From contig NZ_CP076130.1 in assembly GCF_018736065.1 (NCBI RefSeq), positions 584,633-616,632 of the forward strand: DNA of 32,000 nt, written 5' to 3'. The stretch comes from Flammeovirga kamogawensis (GTDB taxonomy: Bacteria > Bacteroidota > Bacteroidia > Cytophagales > Flammeovirgaceae). The position numbers were made by a program, and so were the translations under genes. Positions 6,687 to 31,531 of this stretch are shown one piece after another. How positions within the stretch are numbered: the stretch's first letter is position 1; each line of letters opens with the position of its first letter. The notes beneath the pieces are model-generated. The model was not told the origin of the DNA. It made no database searches and was given only the letters and a program-made list of their open reading frames with translations.

Positions 6687-6708
6687 TCATTTTTTTAAAA
6701 TAATAGCA

Positions 6709-6735: not shown

Positions 6736-6752
6736 ATAGAAAAAATAAGCAA

Positions 6753-9893: not shown

Positions 9894-9897
9894 AAAA

Positions 9898-11592
9898 ATG
9901 AAAAGATATATAAATTGTATTTGGTTTGTATTGCTTGGTTTAGCAACAAGCTGTACTAGTCTTCTTGAAAAAGAGCCTATATCAACATCTAATGCAGAAA
10001 CGTTTTATAAAACAGTAGATGATGTTGAACTAACATTAATGGGTACATACAGTGCTTTACAAGCAAAAGGTACTTATAGTGGTAATATTCCAGTTTTAAT
10101 GAACACTGGAACAGATGAAGCCTTGTATTCAAGACCCTACAACAGTTGGACGACAAGTTACTATCAACATACAAGCTCAACGGAAGATATTCGTATGATT
10201 TGGAGAGATCTTTACTTTGGAATTTCTCAAGCAAATTCAACTTTAACAGGTTTATCTATTGTTGAAGGTGATGTTGAAAGAAAAACTGAAATTGAAGCTG
10301 AAGCAAGAACATTAAGGGCACTATTTTACTTAGACCTTGTTCGTTTCTTCGAGAATGTACCTCTTATATTAACGCCTACAACTGATATTGATAATTTGTA
10401 CCCATCACAAGCAGAACCAATGGAAGTGTACAAGCAAATTATTGAAGATTTACAGTTTGGTACTGCACATTTAAAATGGGGTGCTGATGTACAAGCAGGT
10501 AGAGTATCTAATGCTTTAGCGCATGGCGTATTAAGCAGAGTATACCTTGACCTTGCTGGTGAACAAATGGCCAAGTATAGTGATATTTCTAAAGATGAAT
10601 GTTACAAATTAGTAGTGGCTCACTCAGATTCTGTAATAAATAATGGATACCACACATTAAATAGTGATTACCCATTAATCTTTAAAAATCTAGCAAAAAA
10701 CATCTACGAAACTAGAGAAGTAATCTTCCAAATTGGTTTCCAAAACATGTTAGCAGATGGTTTATCAGAAGGTGGGCAACATGGTAATTTAAATGGTCCT
10801 TCTACCAACTTTAATAACCAAACAGAGCCTTTTGCATATGCTTTTCAGTTTACAACAATTATGCATGTAAATGCTTATGAGCATGCTAACATCCCTGATG
10901 TTAATAATGTAGGTTTAATGAAAGACACTATTTTGGACCAACGTTATACTTGGAATATTGGTAACTTTAAATACAAATTAGAAGATAGCAACGACCCTAC
11001 AAGTAAAAAAGCAGTGGCATTTTTGGCAACTGCAGAGAAAAATAAAAATGAGTACTACCCTGGTAAGTTCAGAAGGGTAAACCATAATTTAGTAGGATTT
11101 GATGCAGATGGTGAGCCTATCTATGACGTAAGTACATTAGAAGTTGGAGCTATTGCAAAAAATGAAACAAATATAGATTTCCCTTATATGCGTTATGCAG
11201 AAATTTTCTTAAATAAAGCAGAAGCAGAATATGAGTTAGGAAATTTAGATGCGGCAAAACTAAGTTTAAACAAGATCAGAAATAGAGCTGGTTTAGAAGA
11301 CTATGCTTTAAATAATGATCGCCTACAAAGTAGCATTCGTGACGAAAGAATGAGAGAACTTTGCTATGAAGGTTTCAGAAAGAAAGACCTAATTCGTTGG
11401 GGGATTTTAGCAGATAGATTACATGAGTTAAAAGAGCAAATGCTCCTATCAGATCTTGATCCAGCCTCTGGAAAATACTTCTTATTTAGAGCAAGTGATT
11501 ACGTTAAATATCCTAAGCATTCTGTATTGCCAATTCCAAATAGAGAGATAACAAACAACCCTAACCTAGTGCAACATACGTATTGGCAATAA
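9898..11592 (+). CDS. SusD/RagB-family nutrient-binding lipoprotein
   Basis: Lipobox LLGLATSC|TS. It is 564 aa with TPR-like helical content and the typical C-terminal MRYAEIFLNKAEAEYELGN and RDERMRELCYEGFRKKDLIRWG motifs. It is paired with the susC-like gene. Confidence 0.93.
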   Translation: MKRYINCIWFVLLGLATSCTSLLEKEPISTSNAETFYKTVDDVELTLMGTYSALQAKGTYSGNIPVLMNTGTDEALYSRPYNSWTTSYYQHTSSTEDIRMIWRDLYFGISQANSTLTGLSIVEGDVERKTEIEAEARTLRALFYLDLVRFFENVPLILTPTTDIDNLYPSQAEPMEVYKQIIEDLQFGTAHLKWGADVQAGRVSNALAHGVLSRVYLDLAGEQMAKYSDISKDECYKLVVAHSDSVINNGYHTLNSDYPLIFKNLAKNIYETREVIFQIGFQNMLADGLSEGGQHGNLNGPSTNFNNQTEPFAYAFQFTTIMHVNAYEHANIPDVNNVGLMKDTILDQRYTWNIGNFKYKLEDSNDPTSKKAVAFLATAEKNKNEYYPGKFRRVNHNLVGFDADGEPIYDVSTLEVGAIAKNETNIDFPYMRYAEIFLNKAEAEYELGNLDAAKLSLNKIRNRAGLEDYALNNDRLQSSIRDERMRELCYEGFRKKDLIRWGILADRLHELKEQMLLSDLDPASGKYFLFRASDYVKYPKHSVLPIPNREITNNPNLVQHTYWQ

Positions 11593-14663: not shown

Positions 14664-14675
14664 AAAAAAAACAGT

Positions 14676-15077: not shown

Positions 15078-15106
15078 CCACGTTTTACGAGTAACCCAAG
15101 CATTTA

Positions 15107-17065: not shown

Positions 17066-18991
17066 TTACTCTTTAATGAATTTTACTCTTGTTGATTTAT
17101 CGATTTCTAATAGATACATGCCATTTGGTAAGTCACTGATATCAATACATTTGTTGTATACTTTCTTAGTATATGATTCCCCTTGTAGACTAACTATTTT
17201 CACATCATTTAATTGACGAGTTGAATAGATAAATAGCTTACCTTTTGAAGGGTTAGGATAAACATAAATGTCATTATTATTATTTTCTACTGATAATGGC
17301 AATTCAATATCTGCATCAATATTGTTAGGATCTGAACTTTCCTCTTGGTCATTTTGATCAATAATTTCTTCTGTATCACTATCTGATTCTGTAGGAGTTT
17401 CTCCCTCTTCATTTTCCTTAATTGTGTCACTTTCTTCTTCTGGGTCATTGTCTGCACCAGTAGTATCATCCTCTTCCGTTTGTTCCTCTTCCTCCACTTC
17501 TTCCACAGGTTCTTCCATATCTTCTACTTCAAAAGGAAAAATTTGAATTCCACCTATTGCTGATGTACCACCTTCTAATGCTGATAAAGTAAGTGTTACT
17601 TCTTCTTTATTTTTATAAGGACCAAAAATAGCATAAGTTCCTTCAGGGTAATTCTCTAGAGCATCATCAGTAGTTGAAATACTCGAGAGCATATACGGAT
17701 ATTCTTTTGTGTCTTCGCCTCCAAAAACATCAACACCTTTGTAGTACAAGGTGGTATTTCCATCAGAAATACTTGATTTTATATTTTCATCTTTAATTTT
17801 TTCATACATATAAAGGTTCTTACTATCTTTCTTAATACTTCCATTACTTTCATATAAGTATTTATATTCAGGTCTTTCTCCTGTTAGATAAACAATAATT
17901 TTATATCCAGTAGGGAATTGTGTTGCCAAATTTGACAGTGTTATTTGTAATGGTTTTGTACTTTCTTTTGATGTATATACCCCTGCTTGCAATGCACTTC
18001 TATTAGAACCTCCATAGTTAAGAATTCCTTCAGCATTTTTTACAGAATACGTAACAGTACTAGTAGTGTTATTTGACATTTGAAGTGGGGATGATTGTTG
18101 ATAATCTATACTATTATTCCATCCTCCTGTAACTAAGCCCATACGTTCAATACCGAATTTCTCTATAATAGTCGAATAATCACCACTAGCTTCGGTAGCA
18201 AAATTGATATTAATTGAACATAGTGGTGTTACAACTTCCTTTCTAGGGTTGTTAACCAACCAATCTAAATAGCCTTCTTGTTCAAATTCTAATCCCCATA
18301 CATTATGATCTTTTTCTGGAAGAATTTTCAATTTAGCATCAACTCCACCTATCAATAAACCTTTAGCTATAACTCTACTCGTATTGGCATCAACCTTAGG
18401 ATCTTTATCTCCTGTAATTACCCAAGCACTAAAATTATTGTATTTAATAACACTGTCTTTTATAGAAAAATCTTTAGCCATAGCTGCTGCTGTAGAAGCC
18501 ACTGTGGCAAAGGTATTACGCCCAATAGATCGCTCATAAACATACCAGTCCCAAGTTCCTCTTCCACCATAGCTATAACCACTTAAATGTACACGGTCTT
18601 CATCAACTTTATAAGTAGCTTTTATATAATCCCATAGTTTAGAAAGTTGTACATAATTCCATACTCCTTTTGTTCTAGGCCTAATAACCAAATATGGAGA
18701 GTCATCTTTATATAACCTTCCTATCTTTAAAGATACAGTTGTTTTAAATTCTTCTATAGATGATTTCTGTCCATTGTTACCATGTAGGTGAAAATATACA
18801 GGTACTTTATCTACTTCGTTATAGTTTTTGGGAAGTCGGATAGTATAATCAAAAATTACATTGCTGTTTACAGAAGCAGGAGATTCTTGAGATAATTCAA
18901 TACCTAAAGTTGTTTCTTGAGCATTTGTTTCGCTGAAGAAAACTGTCAATAAAGACATTAAGAATACTGAAAATTGTAGTTGTTTTTGCAT
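17066..18991 (-). CDS. T9SS-secreted esterase: alpha/beta-hydrolase domain, unknown beta-rich middle domain, acidic linker and type-A C-terminal sorting domain
   Basis: The likely start is ATG 18991 (MQKQLQFSVFLMSLLTVFFSETNAQ signal peptide); the track extends to 19036. Esterase motifs are PVYFHLHGNNG, HLSGYSYGGRGTW (G-x-S-x-G), GDKDPKV and EKDHNVW. A 73-aa E/D-rich linker precedes the C-terminal YVYPNPSKGKLFIYS...LPNGMYLLEI...VKFIKE, typical of Por_Secre_tail. Confidence 0.8.
   Translation of the reverse strand: MQKQLQFSVFLMSLLTVFFSETNAQETTLGIELSQESPASVNSNVIFDYTIRLPKNYNEVDKVPVYFHLHGNNGQKSSIEEFKTTVSLKIGRLYKDDSPYLVIRPRTKGVWNYVQLSKLWDYIKATYKVDEDRVHLSGYSYGGRGTWDWYVYERSIGRNTFATVASTAAAMAKDFSIKDSVIKYNNFSAWVITGDKDPKVDANTSRVIAKGLLIGGVDAKLKILPEKDHNVWGLEFEQEGYLDWLVNNPRKEVVTPLCSININFATEASGDYSTIIEKFGIERMGLVTGGWNNSIDYQQSSPLQMSNNTTSTVTYSVKNAEGILNYGGSNRSALQAGVYTSKESTKPLQITLSNLATQFPTGYKIIVYLTGERPEYKYLYESNGSIKKDSKNLYMYEKIKDENIKSSISDGNTTLYYKGVDVFGGEDTKEYPYMLSSISTTDDALENYPEGTYAIFGPYKNKEEVTLTLSALEGGTSAIGGIQIFPFEVEDMEEPVEEVEEEEQTEEDDTTGADNDPEEESDTIKENEEGETPTESDSDTEEIIDQNDQEESSDPNNIDADIELPLSVENNNNDIYVYPNPSKGKLFIYSTRQLNDVKIVSLQGESYTKKVYNKCIDISDLPNGMYLLEIDKSTRVKFIKE
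17069..17284 (-). other. T9SS type-A C-terminal sorting domain of the esterase
   Basis: NNNNDIYVYPNPSKGKLFIYSTRQLNDVKIVSLQGESYTKKVYNKCIDISDLPNGMYLLEIDKSTRVKFIKE. Confidence 0.8.
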
Positions 18992-19175
18992 AATTATTAT
19001 CATTTCACTTTTAAAAATGATAATGTATAAGCTCAACTATAGGTTTGATTCCAATAATTATTCAAAACGGTAGAGTGATTAAAAAATGAAACAATTTGGT
19101 CATTTATTAATACTTCGATTAAGGAAAATTGGTGTTCTATTTTAAAAATACAATAAAGTAAAAAGCTATTTTAAT

Positions 19176-19224: not shown

Positions 19225-20469
19225 TTAATCAATAACGAATGCTAACTTGTCGTTTGCTTCATATTCTCGTTTTCGTAATAATGCTTCTAAGTAGTAGTAA
19301 TCTGCATAATTTAGCGGTTTATCAATCTCATTTTTATGAGGAATACTACCTACTGAATGCTTTAATAAAAAGAAGTTGTTATCTCCTACTTGTGCCATAA
19401 ATTCTGGTTCAGATAATGTTGTTACAATTTTATCTGCATTCTCTAAATATCTTTCTGCATCTTCTGTTGGAACATAAGTAGCTAATTCATACAAAGCACT
19501 TGCTGTAACTGCCCCTGCCGATGCATCTCTTGGAGCATTAGGTATTCTTGGATCATTATAATCCCAATAAGGTACCATATCCTTAGGCATCGATTTATTA
19601 GTGAGCATATAGTTTGCAATTTTCTGTGCAAAATCTAGGTATTTTTGGTCTTTTGTAAAACGGTAACACGTTAAGTAACCATATAATCCCCATGCTTGTC
19701 CACGTGCCCAAGATGAATTATCTGCATAACCTTGTGCAGTTTGTCTATGCCTAACTTCACCATTTGTGCTATCATAATCAACCACATGGTAGCTGCTAAA
19801 ATCTGGTCTATAATGGTGCTGCATTGTTTTATCTGCATGCTTAATTGCAATATCTCTATACGTATTGTCTCCAGATAAATCAGATGCTTTAAACAGTAAT
19901 TCTAGATTCATCATATTGTCTATAATTACCGGGTACTCCCATCCTCTTTCACTTTGCCAGCCCTTATCAACATCCCAAGAAAGAATAACCCCAACTTCTG
20001 GATGGAATCTACTTGAAAGTGATTTAGCTGAATTAATTAGCACCTCTTTGTACTCTTCTGTATGGTCTAGTCTTAATCCGTTCCCAAAAGAACAGTTGAT
20101 GATAAAACCAACGTCATGGTTACCTTTATGAAACTGGTTATGAGCAACTTTTTTAGAATACTCTTTTGCTAGTTCTTCCCATTTAGGATCTTTTGTATAT
20201 TCATATAAGTACCATAAAGAACCAGGAAAAAAGCCTTGTGTCCAGTCATATTCACCCACCAAATATTTAGTAGTCACACCATCATTTAAAATACTTCTTG
20301 GTATCTGATCATGGTTATCTGCTTCTTCTTCTAAAAGAGTATATTGTTGTTCTGCTCTATCAAATACTCTATCTACAACTTTAGTTTGTTCTTCTGTTTT
20401 AGTCTCGCAAGAAGTGACAGATACAAATAATGCTATAGTAGTCGCTATTTTTAAAAATCTATTGTTCAT
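19225..20469 (-). CDS. Glycoside hydrolase family 88, unsaturated glucuronyl hydrolase (lipoprotein)
   Basis: GH88 hallmarks are DWTQGFFPGSLWYLYEYT, GNHDVGFIINCSFGNG and WARGQAWGLYGY. The likely start is ATG 20469 (MNNRFLKIATTIALFVSVTSC|ETK lipobox). The tracked start at 20535 adds 22 aa with no signal character. Confidence 0.88.
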   Translation of the reverse strand: MNNRFLKIATTIALFVSVTSCETKTEEQTKVVDRVFDRAEQQYTLLEEEADNHDQIPRSILNDGVTTKYLVGEYDWTQGFFPGSLWYLYEYTKDPKWEELAKEYSKKVAHNQFHKGNHDVGFIINCSFGNGLRLDHTEEYKEVLINSAKSLSSRFHPEVGVILSWDVDKGWQSERGWEYPVIIDNMMNLELLFKASDLSGDNTYRDIAIKHADKTMQHHYRPDFSSYHVVDYDSTNGEVRHRQTAQGYADNSSWARGQAWGLYGYLTCYRFTKDQKYLDFAQKIANYMLTNKSMPKDMVPYWDYNDPRIPNAPRDASAGAVTASALYELATYVPTEDAERYLENADKIVTTLSEPEFMAQVGDNNFFLLKHSVGSIPHKNEIDKPLNYADYYYLEALLRKREYEANDKLAFVID

Positions 20470-20696: not shown

Positions 20697-23600
20697 TTAT
20701 TGCTTTATAAACTTCTTTAAGATTATCTCTCCATCAGAAATTATATTTACGTAATACATTCCAGATGATAGGGTATCTAATCTAATTACCGTTTCTTGTG
20801 CTTTAATATCTCTACTCATTACTTGTTGCCCCATTCCGTTAAAAAATACTGCTTTTGTTCCTTCTTTAACAGTGGTCATTTTTAATGTAAGTTGAGTAGT
20901 TGCAGGAACTGGGTAAAGTACTACATCAGCGTTCCAAACATCTCCGATAGAAGTAGGTCCATTTTCTCTATATATCCCTTCAAATATTAATTCAGGAACT
21001 TGCTCATCAACTGAATAAGAAGATGAAAATCTCACCCAATTAGAGCCCGTCACTTTAAAAGTCACCTCCTTCGAACCTTGTTCTAACGCCGCTTTTACGT
21101 AATCAGACACATCGAAATAGTAGTCTATTTGGTTTCCATTATGTTCCATACTCGGAATTGTATTTTCGGCAAGTATTGCAGCGTCATCTGCCACTAAATC
21201 ACTGCCAGACGTACCTAAAGTAGTACTGTAAGATACTTCATTAGCAAACCAAGATGTTGCTGTAGAACCAAAAACATTTATATCAGAATCTTCCGACATG
21301 TTTGTCTTATCTGCATATAATTTCAACATTACTTTATCTACACTTTCCATAACAGAAAGATCAAATTTTAAGTAAGTAGCCTTATCGTTACTACCAATTT
21401 CTAAGTAATTACTTGTTGCAAAATTTTCTGTTGGATATTGTGATGTCACATACGTATCATCTATAATATCTGCAGCAAAATTCTCTTTTGCAATTACTTT
21501 ATACTGATACACAAGGTTTCCATCCTGAGATATACTTTCTACAATACAGCCTGCGTATACATCTGCAACAATTTGGTGCGTAGATGGGGCAATTACTGTG
21601 ATAGATCCTCCTTCTGGAGCAATAACGTCTTCTAAAAATTGTGCTTTGCTTTGTGCAATATCAATACCTTCAATTTCTCCCATTTCTGTTGCCTCTGTTG
21701 GGTGAATGATTGAATAAGTAGCCGAACTTATTTCTGCAGAAGTAATTAACTCTACTTGTTTTGGTTTAAACTGAAAAGCTGAAATATAAGGTGCATTTGC
21801 AACAACAGAAGATCTATATATTGACGTGAAAATTGCTTTTCCATCAGTATCTAAAATGTTCGTAATTTCTCTAATAATAAAGGTCTGCACAGAATCTGCT
21901 TCGCTAATTTCTCCTAAGTTTAAAGGAATCGAAATTAGTTGATCTTCGTCTGATTGATATAACTCAATAAAGCCTACTCTTTTAAATAGTCCTTCTGGTT
22001 TAGCATCAAATGTTACGGTAGTCTCATCAAAATCAACTGCTGCAGCAACTACTTCGTAACTTACAGATGTTCCTTTGTAGGCTCTTCCTGTAATATTTAG
22101 ATTTACTTCTGTAAGTGTATCTAAATTCATTAATGAACTCACATTAAAAGACAATAAGGCTTCTCTTAAATAGGTGCTATTTGTGGCTGCTACAATTTCT
22201 ATCTTAGAATTATCAAAATAATTTTTAGACGAGTTACTTCCTCCTCTTACCATTACGTCTTTTCTAGATGCATACGTTTTGTTTTCTGTATTAGAGAAAC
22301 CATAATGAATTGTATACACTTTAGAAATACCATCTGCAGAAGATACTTCTATTTGATGTGTACTTCCATTTACTGAATGTTTAGGCGTAATTGTTACCGT
22401 ATTACTTGCATCTGTATCTACAATAAGCGTTGGCATTACTGCTTCTGTAGATGTGTGTGCTACAAAGTAATTTTCCGTTTCTGGAGAAAATTCTTCTATT
22501 TGTTTTCCATCAATAGAAATACCAAAAACTAGTGTACCTTTTGCTAAACGGTCTGTCAATTGCTGTTGGAACACAGAGGCTGGATACACTCCTTTTTTAT
22601 TTAAGCCTTCAACATAAATTCCTGATGTAGCTCTATCTGCTCTAGAACCTGCAATTTGTACATTAGAAGCTTCAGGATTATAAACACCAATTACTTTACT
22701 CTGAGGGTACATTAAGTAACTTTGCTCTTCCTGTCCAAGAAGTGCCATCCACCAAGCATAGAAAAATTCATTTTCAATTGCACTAATTTCGTTAGGTACT
22801 TCTAAGTTCCAGAATACATTAGCAATTCCACTATTTGGCATATTTTCCATTGCTCCAGATCCTTCACATCTAATATTATTTACATTTTCAATTAGGTTAG
22901 CCGCTGGAAAACCTCCTCCATGAAAATCGACTGTACCGTCATAATCACCTAATTCTATATTTGTAAATACATTACCAACCATTATACCCGTACCCCCAAT
23001 TGGGTGCGTTCTAAATGCTGATATTTTAGCATCTTTTAAAACATTTCCATAACCGTTAACTTTAATACCATGATGCCCATCTTTACCAATAACATTTATA
23101 CCTTGAAGGGTAAGTCCTTTTGATAAACTGGTGTTTAAATCCCATGTAAAGTTTTCAAAAGTAACATCTTTCACCCAAGAGTTTGATAACTTACTCAATT
23201 GAAGTGCACACCATCCGTAATCCATTTCATAGACTGTCTTTTCATCTTCTTGAGAGCCGTCTTCGTTCTTACCATGGTGCTTGTATTCTCCAGACCAAGC
23301 CGAAGAAAAACGTAGGTTTTCAATACCTGTTTCTGTAGTATAATTTGTTGTTGAGATCACCGTTTCATATCTCGTTTCTAAATCAATCGGTAATGGCTCT
23401 TTTATAGAAATGTGTTTTCCATTTACGTTAATTACCTCTACAGACCACTGAAATGCTGTTGATCTATTAAAGCTTGACCATCTATCATCTTTTGCTAATG
23501 GGAAGACCATTTTTCTAGAAGCCATATCATCACCTTCTGCATTTTTTACTGTGATTAAAATAAAATCACCAGCTTTTAATGCTGTTTCCGTATCTACAAT

Positions 23601-26204
23601 AAGGTGTCTATCACCTTGTATTGCGGTCTTTTCTAGTTTAGCAACCTCTGTTCCCGATCTACCCCAAATACGCATTCCAAATGTTCCAAACTCAGTACCT
23701 TTTCGTGGTATTTGATTATGGAAATACAATACAGTTCCATCTTCTCCTTGGCCTTCACCTCTTAAAACAATATTACTTTTACTGAAGTTAATGGTTACTA
23801 GATCTTCAGGATTTGTTAGAAAATCATATTGCCCTTTAGGAAGAAGTAGTACTCCACCTCCCGCTTTTCCCATTTCTTCAAATGCTGTATTTAACGCTAC
23901 TGCATCATCTTTATTATCATTTGGAAGTATACCAAAATCAACTGCATTATGCGTAACCGAAAGTGTTGGAATTTCAATTTCACTGTTATGATAACCAGCA
24001 TAGGAGAAGTTAGGTAAAATCGACTTATCTCCTTTCTCTTGAAAGTCTTTCCAAATTTCAGGAATCCATTCTGTCGCTACTGGTGGGGCAATACTTTCGG
24101 TAATAGTTACTGTGTATGGAAAGACGATTTCAGACTGGTCTACTGTATTTGTAACAACAATATTGAAAGTATATGTTCCAACAGATGGCTTCTCATTAAA
24201 TACAATTTCGTTACTTTCATTTATCGAAACTACTGCTGCGTCTTCTCCAGAAATAGAGTAGGTATATGTAGCATTTTCAGCTCCTCCTTCTGTAGTAAGT
24301 TCGCCTATTAAAAATGATTCTGTTATATCATCTTCATTAATTTCTTGCTGATCAGATGTATTTCCTCCAACTACTAAACTAATTGTTGAATTAATACGAA
24401 CCTGAACCTCTAAAGTAGTTATTTGTCCGTTATCTGCAGTTCCTTTTATTATTAATGATGCTGTAGGTTGCGTTGCCGCTTCTAGAGCTTCTGCTGTAGT
24501 TATTGTTCCTTCAGTAAGCGTAAACAAATTAGCATCATCACCTTCTAAAGTATACGTTACAGCTAAACCTTTGTCTTCTTCTACAATTGTGGCCACCTCA
24601 ATTCCTGCATCTCCTTCAGTAATTTCAGGGCTTTCTGGAGTTGTTGCAAATGCTGGCACAGGAATTACATCTACATTAAAAGAAGAAGCTGTTGCCCCGC
24701 CTGCGTTAGCTGCTGTAATTGTAAAACCAGATGGTCTTGTAAAATAATCAAGTGATTTATTTAAGATGACATCATTTCCACTTAATCGATAAGTTGGATT
24801 TGATGTGGTCGTTACATTACAAATTGGAAGGATCGTATTTTTGATATTTGTATCAGAATATGTTGCTCTAAATGCAACCCATAATTTTGTATTCCCTAAA
24901 ATATAAGCCGACAGGTCTAAATTTGTTACATTGATTCCTGATAAATCATCTAAATTAAAATTATCTAATTTCAAGAAGTCTGCAGAAACATTTTCTTTAA
25001 CAACTTGCCAACCTGAATGTGTTAATGGGTTTACAGGAGCTGTAGTACTCACTACAATTTCTAAAGAATTGTCTGACAAAGTTCCGTAGCGAGATGCTCC
25101 ACCATATTCTAAAACTAAGTTCGATATATCAGATACATCAATTGCTCTATCTAATAACAAATAAGATGTAAAAGCTTCTTTTGTCGCATCGGTACCATTT
25201 CCATTTTTTATTAATGGATAGTATACTTCTTCACCGTTCAATGTTATTTTTTGGGTACTCCAAATCTTAGTATATGATGCACCTTGGTATTCTGGAGTAA
25301 TAGACGAAGCATTTGTAAAACCATTTAAACCATCTGACGAAGGATTGGTTACATACGCTTTTTTATGAACTCCTGGAGTAAACTTATTTTCTACTAACGA
25401 TACTATTGTATTCGTTCCTGTATAAGATACTGTCCCTACAGTTGAAGTAGGGACAGTATTTTCTATTATTTCTGTTGCTGTGAATGCTAGATCTGTTGGT
25501 GCAGCTTCTGTCTCCTCATTCTCTACAGTTATTTTTACAGATGCAAGGTAAATTTGTCTTGATGTAAGTTCATTAAAAGATTCATATTTAAATGCAATCC
25601 ATATTTTCTCTTTACCTACTCCATAATCCGAGATACTCACCTCACCTTGGGTTAAACTTTCAAGGTCTAGAACATCATACCCTCCTGATGCATTTTTAAC
25701 TTGATTAAAAAAGATATCATCCACTTGAGTAGAGAGTACTTGCCAATTAGTATGGCCAGATAAATCAGACGTTGGGTCTGTATCTGTTACTAAAATTGAT
25801 ACATCTTGATGTGCATTTGACCCGAACCTATACAACCCGCTATAATTTAGCAGTATATCTTTTGCTTGGTCTACATTAATACCTTCAGTACATAAATAAG
25901 AAGTAAATGCTTTTTTCTGAGGTTTCACCGAAGGGAAATAGGTAAACTTAGATGCACCACTTTCACTTAAAATATTAATTCCAGAAACAGACCATGTTTG
26001 TAACCACATACTACCAGAATAGGTAGATGTTAAATAATTTGTTGATGAAGTGTAGCCATTTAATCCAGAAGAGATTTCTTCGTCTGCTTGTGGTTTCGAT
26101 TGTGTTCCTTGCTCAAAAGCAATTTCTGTTTGTGCAAAGCTTTCAAAGCATAAAGTTGTAAGGAAACTTAAAGCAAAAAAGCTAAATAGTAATTTCTTTT
26201 TCAT
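20697..26204 (-). CDS. Giant (1835 aa) mosaic T9SS cargo protein with a pectate-lyase-fold beta-helix core, a candidate extracellular polysaccharide lyase or hydrolase
   Basis: Signal peptide aa 1-25. Two choice-of-anchor-J-like modules (aa ~44-228 and ~285-466) are followed by cadherin/Ig-like repeats (aa ~470-703). The beta-helix core (aa ~711-1222) is paralogous to ORF 27180..28757. After it come a cadherin-like beta-sandwich (aa ~1223-1302), two DNRLRE-like modules (aa ~1309-1480 and ~1576-1745) and a T9SS CTD (aa ~1758-1835: VVLYPVPATTQLTL...SSGMYYVNIISDGEIILKKFIKQ). Confidence 0.8.
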   Translation of the reverse strand: MKKKLLFSFFALSFLTTLCFESFAQTEIAFEQGTQSKPQADEEISSGLNGYTSSTNYLTSTYSGSMWLQTWSVSGINILSESGASKFTYFPSVKPQKKAFTSYLCTEGINVDQAKDILLNYSGLYRFGSNAHQDVSILVTDTDPTSDLSGHTNWQVLSTQVDDIFFNQVKNASGGYDVLDLESLTQGEVSISDYGVGKEKIWIAFKYESFNELTSRQIYLASVKITVENEETEAAPTDLAFTATEIIENTVPTSTVGTVSYTGTNTIVSLVENKFTPGVHKKAYVTNPSSDGLNGFTNASSITPEYQGASYTKIWSTQKITLNGEEVYYPLIKNGNGTDATKEAFTSYLLLDRAIDVSDISNLVLEYGGASRYGTLSDNSLEIVVSTTAPVNPLTHSGWQVVKENVSADFLKLDNFNLDDLSGINVTNLDLSAYILGNTKLWVAFRATYSDTNIKNTILPICNVTTTSNPTYRLSGNDVILNKSLDYFTRPSGFTITAANAGGATASSFNVDVIPVPAFATTPESPEITEGDAGIEVATIVEEDKGLAVTYTLEGDDANLFTLTEGTITTAEALEAATQPTASLIIKGTADNGQITTLEVQVRINSTISLVVGGNTSDQQEINEDDITESFLIGELTTEGGAENATYTYSISGEDAAVVSINESNEIVFNEKPSVGTYTFNIVVTNTVDQSEIVFPYTVTITESIAPPVATEWIPEIWKDFQEKGDKSILPNFSYAGYHNSEIEIPTLSVTHNAVDFGILPNDNKDDAVALNTAFEEMGKAGGGVLLLPKGQYDFLTNPEDLVTINFSKSNIVLRGEGQGEDGTVLYFHNQIPRKGTEFGTFGMRIWGRSGTEVAKLEKTAIQGDRHLIVDTETALKAGDFILITVKNAEGDDMASRKMVFPLAKDDRWSSFNRSTAFQWSVEVINVNGKHISIKEPLPIDLETRYETVISTTNYTTETGIENLRFSSAWSGEYKHHGKNEDGSQEDEKTVYEMDYGWCALQLSKLSNSWVKDVTFENFTWDLNTSLSKGLTLQGINVIGKDGHHGIKVNGYGNVLKDAKISAFRTHPIGGTGIMVGNVFTNIELGDYDGTVDFHGGGFPAANLIENVNNIRCEGSGAMENMPNSGIANVFWNLEVPNEISAIENEFFYAWWMALLGQEEQSYLMYPQSKVIGVYNPEASNVQIAGSRADRATSGIYVEGLNKKGVYPASVFQQQLTDRLAKGTLVFGISIDGKQIEEFSPETENYFVAHTSTEAVMPTLIVDTDASNTVTITPKHSVNGSTHQIEVSSADGISKVYTIHYGFSNTENKTYASRKDVMVRGGSNSSKNYFDNSKIEIVAATNSTYLREALLSFNVSSLMNLDTLTEVNLNITGRAYKGTSVSYEVVAAAVDFDETTVTFDAKPEGLFKRVGFIELYQSDEDQLISIPLNLGEISEADSVQTFIIREITNILDTDGKAIFTSIYRSSVVANAPYISAFQFKPKQVELITSAEISSATYSIIHPTEATEMGEIEGIDIAQSKAQFLEDVIAPEGGSITVIAPSTHQIVADVYAGCIVESISQDGNLVYQYKVIAKENFAADIIDDTYVTSQYPTENFATSNYLEIGSNDKATYLKFDLSVMESVDKVMLKLYADKTNMSEDSDINVFGSTATSWFANEVSYSTTLGTSGSDLVADDAAILAENTIPSMEHNGNQIDYYFDVSDYVKAALEQGSKEVTFKVTGSNWVRFSSSYSVDEQVPELIFEGIYRENGPTSIGDVWNADVVLYPVPATTQLTLKMTTVKEGTKAVFFNGMGQQVMSRDIKAQETVIRLDTLSSGMYYVNIISDGEIILKKFIKQ
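20700..20933 (-). other. T9SS type-A C-terminal sorting domain of the giant protein
   Basis: NADVVLYPVPATTQLTLKMTTVKEGTKAVFFNGMGQQVMSRDIKAQETVIRLDTLSSGMYYVNIISDGEIILKKFIKQ. Confidence 0.8.
22539..24074 (-). other. Beta-helix (Pectate_lyase_3-like) catalytic-core region of the giant protein
   Basis: LPNFSYAGYHNSEIEIP, AVDFGILPNDNKDDAVALNTAF, GGVLLLPKGQYDF, NIVLRGEGQGEDGTVLYF, YKHHG, YGWCALQLSKLSNSWVKDVTFENF and GHHGIKV all align motif-by-motif with ORF 27180..28757. Confidence 0.7.
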
Positions 26205-26285: not shown

Positions 26286-26921
26286 TTATTTAAGCGTAAT
26301 GTACGCTCCATTTTTTGTTATATTCCCGTTTTTAGAAGTTCTCTCTTTAGAGTAAAACTCCGAAGTAACGGGTCTGTCAGCCACACTTTGTAATGCTATA
26401 GAAAACTCTTGTTTCTTACCAGAGTCTATAATCAATTCTTTTATTTCAATTGCTGGAATACTTACTGTATACCAAGCCCAACCACCTTGTTCTCCTTTCT
26501 GAGTAACTTCAAAAGTTCCTATTTTACCACCTACTTGTGGGGCTTTTTTCCAAGTAATACTCTCTTCATTCCACTTATTAGATAATACGGTATGAACATC
26601 AATAATTGCATTTTTATCTGTTTGTTTACTAAATGCTTTTCCATACACATGTAAAACAATAAAATTTGCATTATCTAGTCCATCAATATTTTTCATGCTA
26701 AACTTCAAATAAGTTCTTCTACTGTACTTATTTTCTTTTTTCACATTACCTACTCTTAGCTTATTGCTTTGTGTGCTACCCATTGTTTTCACACTAGACT
26801 CACCACACTCTACATAAGCATCTTGCTTTACTTTTATTTTACCACCGTTCTTTGGTTCACCTGCTTGTACTAAAGAAACCATTCCTAAAGAAAAAAGTAG
26901 TATAAAAATTCTTGTTTTCAT
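26286..26921 (-). CDS. Secreted stand-alone DNRLRE-like (carbohydrate-binding-type) module protein, 211 aa
   Basis: Signal peptide MKTRIFILLFSLGMVSLVQA. DAYVECGESS...RRTYLKFSMKNIDGLDNANFIVLHVYGKA...IDVHTVLSNKWNEESITWKKAP fits the DNRLRE pattern (D.yv...YLkFdl...A.L.ly...v..v...W.E..iTW..aP) and the two modules in the adjacent giant protein. Confidence 0.6.
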   Translation of the reverse strand: MKTRIFILLFSLGMVSLVQAGEPKNGGKIKVKQDAYVECGESSVKTMGSTQSNKLRVGNVKKENKYSRRTYLKFSMKNIDGLDNANFIVLHVYGKAFSKQTDKNAIIDVHTVLSNKWNEESITWKKAPQVGGKIGTFEVTQKGEQGGWAWYTVSIPAIEIKELIIDSGKKQEFSIALQSVADRPVTSEFYSKERTSKNGNITKNGAYITLK

Positions 26922-27179: not shown

Positions 27180-28757
27180 TTAAAAAAACAAACCTTCTTT
27201 TTTCAAATCTTTGATCCAATCAGGTAACTCACCTAATCTTAATTCTAACTGTGCCTCAAATAAAGATGTTGTTTTAACGGGTGTACCTACAGATTCTAAT
27301 ACATCAATTGTAGAAGCATCAAATGATGCACCTTCCTGTCCATGGAATCCAACTACAATAGGAGGAATAACTTTCCAAAACCAAGTATCTTTTGCCCAAA
27401 AAGTAAAATTCTGCTCTGCCGCATCTGTCTCCTTAAAGTTCCAAATTACTAAGTTTCTTAAATGGTTTGGAAGGTTTTGTCTAGCTCCACCACCTCTGCC
27501 TGCAAAGAATCCACCTTCGACACAATCAAAAAGTGTGTTTCTTGGTTGTGAGGCATGAGATTCAAAAGATGTATTCGGTGTCCATCGTGTTCTCCAAATA
27601 ACATTATTAGATGATGATCCGCCAGATACTCCATAAGAATGCCATACACCTGCCTGGTCATCACAATTTGCAATTAAAACACCCATAGATGCCGTCATAG
27701 AAATTGCATTATGCCCTGGGTTACCTTCGATAACACAATTTAATGCCGTAACTGCCGCAGATTTAGTTATGTGTACAGATCTACTAACATCTTTAAATCT
27801 ACAATCTTGAACCCAAGAATCTGTTACACCATTTAGATTTAATATACTCCAACCTCCATCATGTACAGCATCTTTATGATGCTTAAATTCATCTTTCCAA
27901 TTTCCTTCAAACGCTAAATGTTCAAAACCAATATGCTCTAAATGTGCATAAGATTTTAACGTCCACTCGTGTTTTGATTGTACATCATAATGAATTGGTT
28001 CTTCAAAAATTACATTCTTTCCTTCTATTGCCTTAACAATGTGTTTTTCGTTTACAATCACACCTTTGTTTAGAATGGTTTTCCAAGAAGGATCGCACTT
28101 AGCAGGGGCTAATTCATAATTTACTAAATCTGGAGCATTGTTTTTAACAGACAATAGAACCCAATCTCCTACTTTTATCTTATTAGTATTATCTACTTCA
28201 ACAGAAAAAGTTTCTCTCTTTGCATTTCTGCTAACGTTAGCAAGAAACTTATCAGCTCCTTTAGGTACTGTTTTAATTGCAAAAGGTGCTGTCCATAATT
28301 TTGAAGGATCTGCAGCCTTTAAATCTAAATCAAAAAATAAAATAGATCCATCCGTTCCTTTTCCTTCTCCTCTAAATACAATATTAGAAGATCTTACAGT
28401 GATAAGGTCTGTCTTGTCTTTCTTAGTATTGATGTAATACTTTCCTTTAGGGAAAAAGATAATCCCTTCTCCATTTTGTTCTGCTGCTGCAATTGCTTTT
28501 TGAATCGCTTTTTTATCTGATTTTTTATCATTTGGTTTTGCTCCAAAATCTGTAACATCAAATATTTTGTAGTCAGCTACAGGTATACCCACTTCGCTAT
28601 ATTCATATCCTACAAAAGAAAAGTTGGGTAACTTTGGTGTTTCTCCTGTCTCTTGGCATGCTTTGTACTCTTTCCAAACTTCACTTTCTTGTGCAAAAAC
28701 TGAAGATATAGAAACACTCAAAGTTGCTAGTAATGCTATAAGTAATTTCTTGTTCAT
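27180..28757 (-). CDS. Secreted right-handed beta-helix enzyme (Pectate_lyase_3-like N-terminus; DUF4955/PL29-like by memory), candidate polysaccharide lyase
   Basis: The likely start is ATG 28757 (MNKKLLIALLATLSVSISSVFAQ signal peptide). VTDFGAKPNDKKSDKKAIQKAIAAAEQNGEGIIFFPKGKYYI is the classic start of pectate-lyase-superfamily beta-helices. The rest is paralogous to aa ~711-1222 of the giant protein. Confidence 0.7.
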   Translation of the reverse strand: MNKKLLIALLATLSVSISSVFAQESEVWKEYKACQETGETPKLPNFSFVGYEYSEVGIPVADYKIFDVTDFGAKPNDKKSDKKAIQKAIAAAEQNGEGIIFFPKGKYYINTKKDKTDLITVRSSNIVFRGEGKGTDGSILFFDLDLKAADPSKLWTAPFAIKTVPKGADKFLANVSRNAKRETFSVEVDNTNKIKVGDWVLLSVKNNAPDLVNYELAPAKCDPSWKTILNKGVIVNEKHIVKAIEGKNVIFEEPIHYDVQSKHEWTLKSYAHLEHIGFEHLAFEGNWKDEFKHHKDAVHDGGWSILNLNGVTDSWVQDCRFKDVSRSVHITKSAAVTALNCVIEGNPGHNAISMTASMGVLIANCDDQAGVWHSYGVSGGSSSNNVIWRTRWTPNTSFESHASQPRNTLFDCVEGGFFAGRGGGARQNLPNHLRNLVIWNFKETDAAEQNFTFWAKDTWFWKVIPPIVVGFHGQEGASFDASTIDVLESVGTPVKTTSLFEAQLELRLGELPDWIKDLKKEGLFF

Positions 28758-29079: not shown

Positions 29080-30528
29080 TTATTTTGAAGCTTTATCTAA
29101 TTTTTTGAAATAACTATTAACCTTATAATCACAATACTTTGATAAAGGAGCCTGCTTTTTAGGAATCTCTTTTATTAACTTTTTGATAATTTGTTCCGAT
29201 GTGTCTAATTCAGCAATATTATTCCATTCATTAGGATCGTCTACAAGGTTGTATAATTCTTGAGTGCCATCTTCATATTGAATAAACTTATACTTTTTAT
29301 CTGTTACCGCTATATTGTTTTTACCATAGGATGTTATGGCAACGTGATTCCACTTCACGTAAGTATTTCCCATTAACGGCACTAAAGAATGCCCATCATT
29401 TTTCTTGTTTTCTGTTAACCCTGCCAACTCTAATAATGTTGGGTAAATATCTACTAGTTGAACAGGTTCATTAGTTACTTTACTGCCTGTATTTTTAGGT
29501 AATTTAAACGCAAGTACAGAACGTGTATCTCTTGTCCATAATGCTTGTTTTGCAAACCTATTCTTCTCTCCCAAGTGATACCCATGATCTGAAAATAAAA
29601 CAACAATGGTGTTGTCTGCATATACCGATTCTTCTAAAGCATTTAAGACTTTACCTATCTGAGCATCCACAAAATAAATACAGGCTAAATATGCTTGAAC
29701 TGCCTCTTTCCATTGTCCTCTTTGAATAAGTTCCTCTGTAGTTGGCATCATTGGGACATCTGCTATTTGCCTACCTAAAGTCGGTACATCTTGTAAATCA
29801 TCTTTTTTATATGGAGGTAAAACAATATCATTTATTGGAAATGGAGTAAACCATTTTGCAGGAACATACCAAGGTACATGAGGTCTTACAAAACCGACTG
29901 CCATAAAAAATGGCTTATCATGTTTTTGTTGTAATTGATTTACTGCCCATTTTGCTGATTGAAAATCGCCTGTTTCTCTATCTTTTTCTGGAAACTTGCC
30001 CCAATCTGTTACCGTTCCTTTTGGTTTTCCAAACCATTCTGGATTGTAATTAAAATGCTTTTTAGGGTAAGGGCCATAGGTATCGAACTTATCTCCATAA
30101 ACATCAAAAACATGCTGGTCGTCACCCCTATGGAAAATCTTACCAACACCTATAGAAGTGTATCCATTTTGTTCAAAATAGTCTGGAAGGTAGATCGCTT
30201 CTTGTACCACCGTATTTGCTTTTTTAATAACGGTGTCCTCTAATTGAACATAATTACCTGTAGTTGTTGGATACATACCTGTTAATAAACTAGCCCTTGA
30301 AGGACCACAAATTGGTGCCTGACAATGTGCGTTTGTAAATAAAATACCTTGATTGGCTAACTTGTCAATATTAGGCGTTTTTACTTGTGGATGACCTCCA
30401 AGAACACCTACCCAATCGTTTAAATCGTCTACAGCAATCATTAAAACATTAGGTTTTTCATTTTCTTGAGCTGTAAGGTACAAAGGAAAAAGAATGCACA
30501 TCGTAATATATAAGGCAATACGTCTCAT
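29080..30528 (-). CDS. Cys-type sulfatase (S1 family), second copy
   Basis: Signal peptide MRRIALYITMCILFPLYLTAQ. Motifs are NVLMIAVDDLNDWVG, AHCQAPICGPSRASLLTG (C-x-P-S-R), GKIFH and LFSDHGYHLGE. It is clearly diverged from the sulfatase at 906..2459. Confidence 0.9.
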   Translation of the reverse strand: MRRIALYITMCILFPLYLTAQENEKPNVLMIAVDDLNDWVGVLGGHPQVKTPNIDKLANQGILFTNAHCQAPICGPSRASLLTGMYPTTTGNYVQLEDTVIKKANTVVQEAIYLPDYFEQNGYTSIGVGKIFHRGDDQHVFDVYGDKFDTYGPYPKKHFNYNPEWFGKPKGTVTDWGKFPEKDRETGDFQSAKWAVNQLQQKHDKPFFMAVGFVRPHVPWYVPAKWFTPFPINDIVLPPYKKDDLQDVPTLGRQIADVPMMPTTEELIQRGQWKEAVQAYLACIYFVDAQIGKVLNALEESVYADNTIVVLFSDHGYHLGEKNRFAKQALWTRDTRSVLAFKLPKNTGSKVTNEPVQLVDIYPTLLELAGLTENKKNDGHSLVPLMGNTYVKWNHVAITSYGKNNIAVTDKKYKFIQYEDGTQELYNLVDDPNEWNNIAELDTSEQIIKKLIKEIPKKQAPLSKYCDYKVNSYFKKLDKASK

Positions 30529-30640: not shown

Positions 30641-31531
30641 TTAGATAGTGATTAATCTTCGAATTATATCATTTAAGGAGTCTTGTGCTTCTTTCATTAC
30701 AGGAAGAAAAGGCCAAATATGTGGCATGTTTTTTCCTTCAATAACTTCTAGATTTACATTGGCTTTCTTCATCTTTAATTCGACCAATTTTGTATCTGGA
30801 TACATAATGTCGTTTTGAGAAAGAAACAAGGTTGTTTCAGGAAACCCTTCAAAGTCTCCATACAAAGGAGAAATCATAGGGTCTTTCAAATCCATGGTGC
30901 CTGCACACATCTTTTTTGCACTCAATACTCCAGCTCTTGAAAGCATTGGGTCTAATTTTTCAAAAGTATTAATTTCTGGATTAGACATACTAGCATCCAT
31001 TACAGGAGAAACAAGAATTAATTTAGCTGGTAATTCAATTTCATTTATTCTTAAACGCTGAATTAATGCAGTAGCTAAAGTACCCCCAACAGAATCTCCG
31101 ATAATAGCAATATGGTTTGGTTGATAATTCTTTAGTGCTTTAGAATATATTGCATCAATATTTTCAGAGATTTTTGCTATCTGATTTTCTGGTGCTTTTG
31201 GATAATCACACATCCAAATTGTATAGTTCGTTTTTATTGCAATTTCTTTTATTGTATCCCAATGATGTTGAGTAGGGCCAGAAATAAATGCACCTCCATG
31301 AATAAAAATTAGTAATTTATCAGCTTTTTCTACACATCCTATTTCTGTAATTAAGGATTCTAAAACTTTAATTTTTTGCAGTATATGTCTCTTGAAAAAA
31401 CGATTATTTGGTAGCTTAACATCTTCTTTCCTAATCTTTTTGAAATCTATTGGTACCTTACTAAAGTCTCTTTTAATTCCTTTTAATTTTATAACCAAGA
31501 GTATGATATAATATGCTAAGCTTTGTTTCAT
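30641..31531 (-). CDS. Alpha/beta hydrolase fold-3 (hormone-sensitive-lipase family) esterase, N-terminally membrane-anchored or secreted
   Basis: N-terminal hydrophobic segment AYYIILLVIKL. It has the HGGAF oxyanion motif (LIFIHGGAFISG), the nucleophile elbow IIGDSVGGTLA and the C-terminal MPHIWP His. In this context it is a likely carbohydrate deacetylase. Confidence 0.8.
   Translation of the reverse strand: MKQSLAYYIILLVIKLKGIKRDFSKVPIDFKKIRKEDVKLPNNRFFKRHILQKIKVLESLITEIGCVEKADKLLIFIHGGAFISGPTQHHWDTIKEIAIKTNYTIWMCDYPKAPENQIAKISENIDAIYSKALKNYQPNHIAIIGDSVGGTLATALIQRLRINEIELPAKLILVSPVMDASMSNPEINTFEKLDPMLSRAGVLSAKKMCAGTMDLKDPMISPLYGDFEGFPETTLFLSQNDIMYPDTKLVELKMKKANVNLEVIEGKNMPHIWPFLPVMKEAQDSLNDIIRRLITI

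Follow-up and report, generated by a model that had tools for sequence, protein, structure and literature searches.

The gene at 27180..28757 (minus strand) and a domain of a giant protein encoded close to it are two paralogous members of the BT3328/PL29 family. We put the probability at roughly 78% that both are lyases of this family and that, within a PUL for a GAG-like polymer that is sulfated and contains uronate, most likely of the chondroitin-sulfate type, they carry out the lyase step. The DNA analysed here, called the window in the following, is a stretch of 32,000 nt from Flammeovirga kamogawensis (contig NZ_CP076130.1, positions 584,633 to 616,632). Apart from the two paralogs, no source of the unsaturated sugars needed by the neighbouring GH88 enzyme could be recognised.

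The ORF of the target gene on the minus strand was confirmed at the position given in a preliminary description of the window. The database protein starts from the ATG at 28757, and the mechanical ORF reaches a GTG at 28796. The 525-aa product is a PL29-like (DUF4955) right-handed beta-helix protein as judged from Pfam, NCBIfam, BLASTP and an AF2 model, and is referred to as subfamily A. Reading the translation, we found an N-terminal signal peptide of the signal peptidase I type, MNKKLLIALLATLSVSISSVFA (aa 1-22, ending in SSVFA; 28692..28757, minus strand), which lacks a lipobox Cys and would be cleaved before QE; the consensus of the orthologues has the same signal type. A Pfam search of the target returned no Por_Secre_tail match, and the protein is predicted to be periplasmic. 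The DUF4955 region recognised by Pfam covers aa 370-518 (27204..27650, minus strand). At the N-terminus, aa 66-113 match PF12708 (Pect-lyase_RHGA_epim) at 2.9e-11. We take Pectate_lyase_3 to be the older name of this family, and the N-terminus had indeed been described as Pectate_lyase_3-like.

The kinship with DUF4955 and PL29, which the preliminary description had only suggested, is borne out by three comparisons. The target matches Pfam DUF4955 at 1.8e-51 and the NCBIfam model NF058554 ('BT3328 family hyaluronic acid endo-lyase') at 1.7e-126 with 423.5 bits, and its BLASTP alignment with P0154 (531 aa, E 1e-116) shows 38% identity; P0154 is a BT3328-type protein scoring 1129.9 bits against the NF058554 equivalog cutoff of 1100. 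The NF058554 match spans aa 19-519 of the target and positions 302-840 of the 840 profile positions, that is, the whole catalytic part. The N-terminal ~300 aa of BT3328 are a spacer (PMC6994673), so the profile region matched by the target is the part that remains after this spacer. The domain of the giant protein is a remote member of the family: the protein matches DUF4955 at 2e-06, above the gathering score, and the domain matches NF058554 at 1.9e-38 (132.3 bits) and P0154 with 25% identity (E 2e-27). The equivalog cutoff of 1100 bits, which marks proteins that match BT3328 in both function and architecture, is reached neither by the target nor by the giant domain. In the case of the target the low score is partly due to the absence of the spacer (profile positions 1-301). 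Given the missing spacer and the divergence of the catalytic part, both paralogs are family members and not BT3328 equivalogs; judged by their sequences, they are uncharacterised relatives of the PL29 founder.

BT3328 from Bacteroides thetaiotaomicron, the founder of PL29, belongs to the CS/DS/HA PUL of this organism (PMC6994673) and was experimentally shown to be an endo-lyase acting on CS and HA (PMC9067506; PMC6994673). It was the only characterised PL29 enzyme found in the literature searched, in which the term DUF4955 was not found at all. We infer the lyase activity of the target and of the giant domain from their homology to this single enzyme; the linkage to GH88, kduI and kduD speaks for beta-elimination only indirectly.

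The giant protein has 1835 aa (20697..26204, minus strand) and is a multidomain protein with DUF4955, two CBM96, Y_Y_Y and Por_Secre_tail matches in Pfam. Its PL29-like beta-helix domain (aa ~711-1222; 22539..24074, minus strand) was delimited with BLASTP and NCBIfam and is called subfamily B; among the matches listed in a search with this domain the closest homologues are only 39% identical. BLASTP aligned aa 692-1150 of the giant protein with the target at 28% identity over 475 columns (E 3e-45), which is far beyond chance, and the two beta-helices are thus true paralogs, as had been proposed. The shared motifs listed earlier, LPNFSF/YxGY, DFGxxPNDxxD, F/LPKGxY, NIVF/LRGEGxGxDG, F/YKHH, GWxxLxL...SWVxDxxF and GHxxI, are all visible in this alignment. 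For the KHH motif the two His are conserved throughout the family, whereas the Lys position is mostly occupied by Val or Ile.

Outside the beta-helix, the giant protein carries two repeated N-terminal domains of ~180 aa (aa 27-206 and 272-446; 24867..26126, minus strand), which may be binding modules. They are 29% identical to each other in BLASTP (E 1e-20), are related to the C-termini of the ORFs 4818-6686 and 12370-13818 (E 2e-4 to 1e-10) and have no match in Pfam. Two CBM96 modules were detected by running Pfam on fragments (aa ~1309-1405 and 1581-1725, at 2.8e-11 and 1.3e-15; 21030..22280, minus strand). The protein ends in a T9SS C-terminal sorting domain (aa 1763-1833; 20706..20918, minus strand; Por_Secre_tail 1.9e-09), so that the two paralogs do differ in their secretion signals as noted before, the target having a signal peptide only.

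The AF2 model of the target is a beta-helix with a pLDDT of 89.9. Phage and capsule polysaccharide lyases, alginate epimerase/lyases and the RbmB lyase are among its top fold matches in the PDB, the best TM-score being ~0.45 with 9-14% identity. The sequence matches in the PDB are confined to the N-terminal cap, from which it follows that the PDB copy searched contains no PL29 structure, and the fold search with the target did not find one either. Across 350 family members the residues S47, Y51, E279, H293, H294, D300, H349, H373 and N440 (target numbering) are invariant, and the invariant polar residues are all kept in both the target and the giant domain. Several of them are spaced 24-29 residues apart, which in this sequence periodicity corresponds to about one coil of the beta-helix. 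We regard Y51, E279, H293, H294, D300, H349, H373 and N440 as candidate catalytic or binding residues of the target. A further set, S403, Q404, R406, R421, H432 and H472, is fixed in subfamily A and missing from the giant domain; according to the hmmalign alignment, which is ambiguous in this region, E399 is also replaced there.

We considered whether the paralogs could share the PL29/DUF4955 fold without being lyases. They would then be hydrolases, uronate C5-epimerases or binders, and the GH88 substrates would come from a lyase elsewhere in the genome or in the community. Alongside the lyases, the fold search returned GH110, GH28 and mannuronan C5-epimerases, and the N-terminal sequence matches in the PDB are mannuronan epimerases, iota-carrageenase and GH110. 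Some homologues of subfamily B are named 'glycosyl hydrolase family 28-related' by NCBI, but this name is due to the generic PF12708 N-terminal cap. Membership in GH28 was rejected: the similarity to GH28 is at the level of the fold only, and neither protein has a Glyco_hydro_28 (PF00295) match at E <= 0.01. A Δbt3328 mutant of B. thetaiotaomicron shows no growth defect (PMC6994673), which means that the PL29 family can be dispensable. In favour of a lyase, the alignment of the target (38% identity) runs through the whole catalytic part of a family with proven lyase activity, and the invariant residues are all kept. Taken together with the gene neighbourhood described below, we consider a non-lyase function of the two proteins improbable.

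The paralogs lie in a minus-strand enzyme cluster. It begins with an Abhydrolase_3 esterase (30641..31531; Pfam) and ends with a T9SS-secreted, esterase-like alpha/beta-hydrolase (17066..19036; Por_Secre_tail 3.9e-10, Peptidase_S9 7.8e-05). Directly upstream of the target is a sulfatase gene (29080..30528, minus strand; Pfam), whose product is nearest to 6hhm, presumably an S1_7 enzyme of an ulvan PUL, and to human iduronate-2-sulfatase. Between the two paralogs a secreted stand-alone CBM96/DNRLRE-domain protein is encoded (26286..26921, minus strand; Pfam CBM96 1.8e-18, NCBIfam DNRLRE 4.2e-16). The GH88 unsaturated glucuronyl hydrolase (19225..20469, minus strand; 414 aa as called) was recognised by Pfam and by PDB matches to 3wiw (E 1.3e-97), which we take to be a heparin-disaccharide-preferring enzyme, and to 1vd5 (3e-53). 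The plus strand carries an S1_15-type sulfatase of the Gal/GalNAc-6-O-sulfatase type (906..2459; PDB 7ozc 2e-189, 6s20 'N-acetylgalactosamine-6-O-sulfatase' 9e-153), for which the TTG start of the mechanical ORF differs from the called gene, and an SGBP-like protein, a SusC-like transporter and a SusD-like protein (4818..11592; Pfam SGBP_BT4661-like, Plug/CarboxypepD_reg and SusD_RagB). BT4661 itself presumably belongs to the heparin PUL. A DUF6250 jelly-roll protein (2541-3344) and a DUF4861 protein (3415-4497) are encoded in between. Just left of the window we found kdgK (PfkB, kdgK-like), an HTCS sensor, kduI, kduD and an MFS transporter. The GH88 and the two sulfatases reported earlier are thus all present, and the window and its left flank contain the hallmarks of a PUL: SusC/SusD, HTCS, GH88 and the KduI/KduD/KdgK route. 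A literature search on Flammeovirga and chondroitin gave nothing relevant.

The idea of the paralogs as the missing lyase had started from the absence of a classical PL family in the 32 kb. Pfam indeed matched no other polysaccharide-lyase family in any other ORF of the window of >= 100 aa. The search was extended to flanks of ~7-10 kb on either side, with no lyase recognised in ~7.5 kb to the left and ~6.7 kb to the right, and about 47 kb around the target contain no other candidate lyase; the route for the GH88 product, kduI-kduD-kdgK, lies just outside the window with no rival lyase recognised. A tblastn search of the locus with two PL8 proteins yielded no PL8, only similarity to the T9SS tail.

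The lyase step could also be due to another protein of the locus, DUF6250, DUF4861 or a hypothetical protein right of the window, with the beta-helix proteins in an accessory role. DUF6250 lies directly beside GH88 or the orthologue of the target in 12 of 82 related loci, and it was modelled as a beta-sandwich of the concanavalin/galectin-like kind, which also occurs in 3-keto-glycoside eliminases and is used by some lyase families as well. DUF4861 co-travels with kduI and kduD. Pfam detected no lyase among the hypotheticals right of the window, several of which have no Pfam match at all. DUF6250 was set aside as a positive candidate and is an improbable lyase: its best structural match is 1oq1 (YesU-type, of unknown function), no polysaccharide lyase appears among the best 50 matches, and it is missing from most of the GH88-bearing related loci. 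As the beta-helix proteins are directly homologous to a proven lyase, a different lyase at this locus is highly unlikely.

The comparison set comprised 82 related loci with an orthologue of the target, 60 of them with full flanks. In 58/82 loci GH88 lies within <=10 kb of the orthologue, and in 36/82 it immediately precedes the orthologue in the same orientation. A sulfatase follows directly downstream in 28/82 (34/82 if those after a CBM96 gene are counted), and a CBM96 gene comes directly after the orthologue in 15/82. The pair of subfamilies A and B recurs in 12 loci. PL8 chondroitinase-type genes are already present at 23/82 loci, which would favour a non-lyase function of the paralogs and in any case means that the target-type protein is not simply a substitute for PL8; where PL8 shares the locus, the role of the orthologue could differ from depolymerisation. 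On the other side, half of the full-flank loci (30/60) have GH88 adjoining the orthologue and lack PL8. The family is large: with E <= 1e-3 as the limit, the target has matches in about 2000 clusters formed at 50% identity. One conserved subfamily is closely linked to GH88 and to sulfatases, which in the single locus looked at are of the CS 4-O-endosulfatase type. Family members come from marine, freshwater and soil Bacteroidota and from some Verrucomicrobiota and Latescibacterota.

A polymer resembling chondroitin sulfate is the probable substrate. The S1_15 sulfatase has very close relatives among GalNAc/Gal-6-O-sulfatases, PL8 lyases of the chondroitinase type are found at loci of the orthologues, and the downstream sulfatase of the Zobellia locus L004, the sole locus checked in this respect, resembles CS/DS 4-O-endosulfatases (6s21 4.6e-98, 6j66 4.5e-65). 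The activity of characterised PL29 is confined to CS, DS and HA (PMC11848413). Alternatively, the paralogs could be lyases with a new PL29 specificity for a sulfated, O-acetylated polyuronide of marine algae or microbes, and not for a GAG of the chondroitin/hyaluronan type. Three to four esterase genes lie in or beside the cluster, and the founding CBM96 member is an alginate binder (PMC9971899); both features do not fit well to classical animal GAGs. The sulfatase beside the target is nearest to 6hhm rather than to the S1_27 CS 4-O-endosulfatase type of the Zobellia locus, and the usual downstream sulfatases have low identity to it, which suggests the same contrast at other loci. The host is a marine degrader of algal polysaccharides. 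With 3wiw as the nearest relative of GH88 and an SGBP of the BT4661 type, 3wiw and BT4661 both being linked to heparin, the backbone of the polymer is uncertain. In view of the sulfatases and the PL8 co-occurrence, a polyuronide substrate seems rather unlikely to us.

If both paralogs are PL29-family lyases for a chondroitin-sulfate-like polymer, degradation might proceed as follows. The T9SS-exported 1835-aa protein would hold the polymer via its CBM96 and N-terminal modules and cut it endolytically outside the cell by beta-elimination. The oligosaccharides would enter the cell via SusC/D and be cleaved further in the periplasm by the 525-aa paralog. The two sulfatases would strip 6-O and probably 2-O sulfate, GH88 would release the unsaturated uronate, and KduI, KduD and KdgK would metabolise it. 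This division of labour between an extracellular and a periplasmic enzyme is what the different secretion signals suggest.

Tentatively, we also consider it possible that each paralog stands for an uncharacterised subfamily of PL29 whose role is new to the family. Subfamily A, firmly tied in its gene order to GH88 and a sulfatase in many phyla, would act in the periplasm on short sulfated oligosaccharides, whereas BT3328 needs a degree of polymerisation >= 8, and the T9SS-secreted, CBM96-bearing subfamily B would act on a marine sulfated or acetylated polyuronide different from classical CS or HA. If so, PL29 alone could suffice for the entire catabolism of a GAG-like polymer without PL8, and its substrate range would be wider than CS, DS and HA.

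Among the known systems, the PL6 chondroitinase B, the phage tailspike and capsule lyases 4ru4 and 7w1c, AlgE and RbmB share with the paralogs the right-handed beta-helix, a PF12708-type N-terminal cap and, probably, the action on uronate-containing polymers. The likeness is at fold level only (TM-score <=0.45, 9-14% identity), and none of them obviously shares the His-rich residues conserved in DUF4955 proteins. The PL8 chondroitin ABC/AC lyases, such as the periplasmic BT3324 and BT3350 and a T9SS-tailed PL8 of Wenyingzhuangia (L005), have the same role as is proposed for the paralogs: they depolymerise GAGs outside the cell and in the periplasm and thereby supply GH88. Their fold, in contrast, is an (alpha/alpha)-toroid plus beta-sandwich, and there is no sequence similarity except for the T9SS tail.

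Another close known system is BT3328. The target is homologous to it over the entire ~520-aa catalytic beta-helix with the DUF4955 C-terminal region, and its PUL likewise has SusC/D, SGBP, HTCS, GH88 and an S1_15 sulfatase. Unlike BT3328, which is a surface enzyme, the target has neither the ~300-aa N-terminal spacer nor a lipoprotein anchor; its signal peptide is of the plain kind, and the predicted location is the periplasm. It also lacks an insertion of 15-25 aa that BT3328-type proteins have before the H373 region. The giant copy, only ~25% identical, differs in that CBM96 modules, a T9SS tail and further modules at the N-terminus are fused to it. The Flammeovirga locus has no PL8 partners. 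The hosts differ as well, a marine member of the Cytophagia on the one hand and a gut Bacteroides on the other. The locus is a sound PL29 annotation and not a new kind of system, and current models of PUL function are not overturned by the Flammeovirga pair. PL29 has so far rested on one characterised enzyme from a gut Bacteroides, whereas our analysis shows a large and diverse family; the Flammeovirga pair bears on PL29 as the sole lyase of a PUL, on its marine substrate range and on new tools for cutting GAGs.

A polysaccharide utilisation locus (PUL) with two arms occupies the window. Its plus-strand arm (0.9–14.3 kb) comprises, in this order, a sulfatase, DUF6250, DUF4861 (encoded on the minus strand), an SGBP-like protein, SusC, SusD and two DUF4493 lipoproteins. 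The minus-strand arm runs from 31.5 down to 17.1 kb and contains an Abhydrolase_3 esterase, a sulfatase, the 525-aa DUF4955 protein (27180..28757), a small CBM96 protein, a giant protein of 1835 aa (20697..26204), GH88 and a T9SS esterase. Between the arms lies a low-GC block (14300–16900, GC 0.28) with unrelated minus-strand ORFs, which may be an insertion; a 133-aa Cys-rich protein, a DUF6896 protein and an alpha/beta hydrolase are encoded there.

The 525-aa protein is 100% identical to a F. kamogawensis 'DUF4955 domain-containing protein' (contig JACHGS010000009, GCA_014207545.1). It carries a signal peptidase I type leader lacking a lipobox Cys, and no T9SS tail was found by Pfam search. 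A 115-aa ORF antisense within its gene (27211–27558, plus strand) is a mechanical ORF only, with no coding evidence. The preliminary description had claimed two paralogous beta-helices, the second at nt 22539..24074, which corresponds exactly to aa 711–1222 of the giant protein. BLASTP bears this out: the 525-aa protein aligns with aa 692–1150 of the giant at 28% identity (475 columns, E 3e-45), and all the motifs proposed as shared are found in this alignment. That one copy is exported by the T9SS and the other has an SPI signal only agrees with the Por_Secre_tail match of the giant (1.9e-09), in which Pfam also detected two CBM96 modules and one Y_Y_Y domain. At the N-terminus of the giant a domain of ~180 aa without family occurs twice (24867–26126, minus strand; repeats 29% identical, E 1e-20). 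The same domain lies at the C-termini of the SGBP-like protein (4818–6686, plus strand) and of a DUF4493 protein (12370–13818, plus strand), and is probably a glycan-binding module common to this PUL.

The suspected relationship to DUF4955/PL29 lyases was also recovered. Pfam places DUF4955 at aa 370–518 (1.8e-51), and the NCBIfam model NF058554 'BT3328 family hyaluronic acid endo-lyase' matches aa 19–519 (1.7e-126, 423 bits, profile 302–840 of 840); the N-terminus, described as Pectate_lyase_3-like, matches the PF12708 pectate-lyase-like cap at aa 66–113 (2.9e-11). The domain of the giant matches NF058554 with 1.9e-38. BT3328 is the founder of CAZy PL29 and the sole characterised member found in the literature, a surface endo-lyase acting on chondroitin sulfate and hyaluronan (PMC9067506, PMC7793863, PMC6994673). 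Its first ~300 aa are a spacer common to SGBPs (PMC6994673), and therefore the 525-aa protein aligns with the complete catalytic part.

Relatives were sought exhaustively among 1.84 billion cluster representatives, which yielded 2021 at E <= 1e-3, 401 of them reaching E <= 1e-30. Two of these homologues, P0154 (824 aa, from Alistipes; 1129.9 bits) and P0263 (1133.1 bits), pass the NF058554 equivalog cutoff of 1100 bits. P0154 is 38% identical to the 525-aa protein over 531 aa (E 1e-116) and 25% identical to the giant's domain over 455 aa (E 2e-27). Judged by sequence, the 525-aa protein is a solid member of the BT3328/PL29 family and not an equivalog, because it scores 423 against 1100 bits, has no spacer and begins with a signal of another type; the domain of the giant is a remote member. 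Among the matches listed for the latter the closest homologues are only 39% identical, and they include ~554-aa proteins sharing loci with orthologues of the 525-aa protein in Wenyingzhuangia, Lutibacter and Flavicella. The lineage of the 525-aa protein is here called subfamily A, that of the giant's domain subfamily B.

An AlphaFold2 model of the 525-aa protein (35-sequence alignment) is a right-handed beta-helix with a mean pLDDT of 89.9 and a pTM of 0.91. Foldseek against the PDB returned fold-level relatives only (TM-score <= 0.45, 9–14% identity), namely phage tailspike depolymerases/lyases (4ru4, 7w1c), GH110, the RbmB lyase, GH28 and the alginate epimerase/lyases 8jaz and 2pyh; no PL29 structure was found in the PDB copy by sequence search or by Foldseek with this model. 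The predicted fold is compatible with a lyase and proves none. Conservation was assessed in 350 aligned family members, 68 of them < 33% identical to the 525-aa protein, whose numbering is used. The polar residues S47, Y51, E279, H293, H294, D300, H349, H373 and N440 are invariant, as are W315, W439, P430 and R507, and all are kept in both paralogs of the window. Of the KHH motif singled out in the preliminary description both His residues are invariant, whereas the Lys is variable, mostly Val or Ile. Since H293/H294, F321, H349, H373, H401 and P430 recur every 24–29 residues, approximately one beta-helix coil, the alignment suggests that they line one helix face as a ladder. S403, Q404, R406, R421, H432 and H472 are fixed in subfamily A and different in the giant's domain; E399 also differs by hmmalign, in a region of ambiguous alignment. 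Such changes fit a domain whose specificity or subsites differ from those of subfamily A.

Other lyases were looked for as the source of the GH88 substrate. As had been claimed for classical PL families in the 32 kb, Pfam lyase families had no matches in the other window ORFs of at least 100 aa. The left flank encodes a PfkB (kdgK-like), a hybrid two-component sensor, KduI, KduD and an MFS transporter, the right flank a GerE-type regulator, hypotheticals without lyase matches and another T9SS esterase; tblastn with two PL8 proteins of a related locus gave only T9SS-tail similarity. DUF6250 (2541–3344, plus strand), the only other unknown that co-occurs widely, was considered as alternative lyase. 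It was modelled (pLDDT 78) as a galectin/concanavalin-like sandwich; B. subtilis 1oq1 is the nearest structure (TM 0.6–0.74), and the best 50 structural matches contain no lyase. 1oq1 is a protein without known function; the model also resembles CBM66, GH16 and 3-keto-glycoside eliminase/hydratases, and in 12 of 82 related loci DUF6250 directly adjoins the DUF4955 orthologue or GH88. The 4-deoxy-L-threo-5-hexosulose-uronate that GH88 releases is normally metabolised through KduI/KduD/KdgK, and the presence of this route shows a locus organised around the products of a lyase. DUF4861 lies near kduI/kduD here (3415–4497, minus strand) and adjoins kduI and kduD in Zobellia (L004, 1522–2718); it recurs as a conserved unknown in loci that catabolise unsaturated uronates.

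Scanning one genome for each GTDB species gave 80 loci with subfamily A orthologues; these and two additional loci, 82 in total, were annotated by tblastn with reference proteins. GH88 lies within 10 kb of the orthologue in 58 of them, and directly upstream on the same strand in 36. Directly downstream follows a sulfatase in 28 loci or a CBM96 gene in 15; in 6 further loci the sulfatase stands behind a small CBM96 gene. PL8 genes occur in 23 loci and a second, subfamily B gene in 12. Where the full flanks were available (n=60), 47 loci contain GH88, 30 of these without PL8. The Zobellia unit consists of HTCS, GH88, DUF4955 and sulfatase, with DUF4861, KduD and KduI divergent; the order in Wenyingzhuangia is HTCS, SusC/D, GH88, DUF4955, CBM96, sulfatase and two chondroitinase-ABC-type PL8, one T9SS-tailed. 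These PL8 genes (L005, 13922–20782) have no counterpart in Flammeovirga, which has the T9SS-tailed PL29-like giant instead. Close homologues (36–42% identity) occur in Latescibacterota, Verrucomicrobiota, Opitutaceae and Pelagicoccus (two copies; loci L069, L071, L074, L076, L079, L080, L083, L084), where GH88 was mostly not detected within 10 kb, so its linkage is largely a Bacteroidota feature.

The downstream sulfatase of Zobellia (L004, 11585–13150), of S1_27 type, is nearest to the BT3349-type endo-4-O-sulfatase 6s21 (4.6e-98) and the CS/DS 4-O-endosulfatase 6j66 (4.5e-65), and this type is probably present in most loci. These associations link subfamily A with the GH88 step and with substrates of the chondroitin/dermatan-sulfate type. 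The sulfatase downstream of the orthologue in most loci shares ~26% identity with the one adjoining the 525-aa protein (29080–30528), which is nearest to 6hhm (5.8e-58) and human iduronate-2-sulfatase (5e-40), both of which belong to S1_7, a subfamily of 2-O-sulfatases. Such an enzyme in place of the S1_27 type suggests that the Flammeovirga substrate is sulfated in a different pattern. The plus-arm sulfatase is S1_15-like (7ozc, 2e-189; 6s20 'N-acetylgalactosamine-6-O-sulfatase', 9e-153), the SGBP matches a BT4661-type model in Pfam, and GH88 is nearest to 3wiw (1.3e-97), a Pedobacter heparinus enzyme preferring 1,4-linked heparin disaccharides. Most economically, the substrate would be a 6-O/2-O-sulfated GAG with a putatively chondroitin-like backbone. 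A sulfated, acetylated polyuronide of algae or microbes is a possible alternative; several esterases lie in or around the PUL, and the founding CBM96 module binds alginate (PMC9971899). In the T9SS esterase-like protein (17066–19036, minus strand) the sorting domain is preceded by an extremely acidic linker of ~60 aa, rich in Glu/Asp/Thr, which together with two or three other esterases around the cluster hints at an O-acylated substrate.

For the chondroitin-like GAG we propose that the giant, exported by the T9SS, would bind the polymer, as its CTD and CBM96 matches indicate, and by family homology cleave it endolytically by beta-elimination outside the cell. Oligosaccharides would be taken up via SusC/D, after the standard PUL model. 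The SPI paralog may then cleave in the periplasm, to judge from its kind of signal and from the operon-like linkage with GH88 and a sulfatase; desulfation, GH88 and the KduI/KduD/KdgK steps would follow by homology and the standard pathway.

Pipelines based on CAZy would very likely assign the 525-aa protein to PL29 as it stands; therefore this is the correct annotation of new, uncharacterised members of a seldom studied family and not a new kind of system. What matters is the conserved GH88 – PL29-like – sulfatase unit in a family without structure or mechanism, and the possibility that PL29 alone serves a PUL. The functional parallel is the CS/DS/HA PUL of B. thetaiotaomicron with PL29, S1_15, GH88, SGBPs, SusC/D and an HTCS sensor (PMC6994673). 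Unlike that PUL, the Flammeovirga locus has no PL8, contains two divergent PL29-like copies and CBM96 modules, and uses T9SS secretion in place of lipoprotein surface display.
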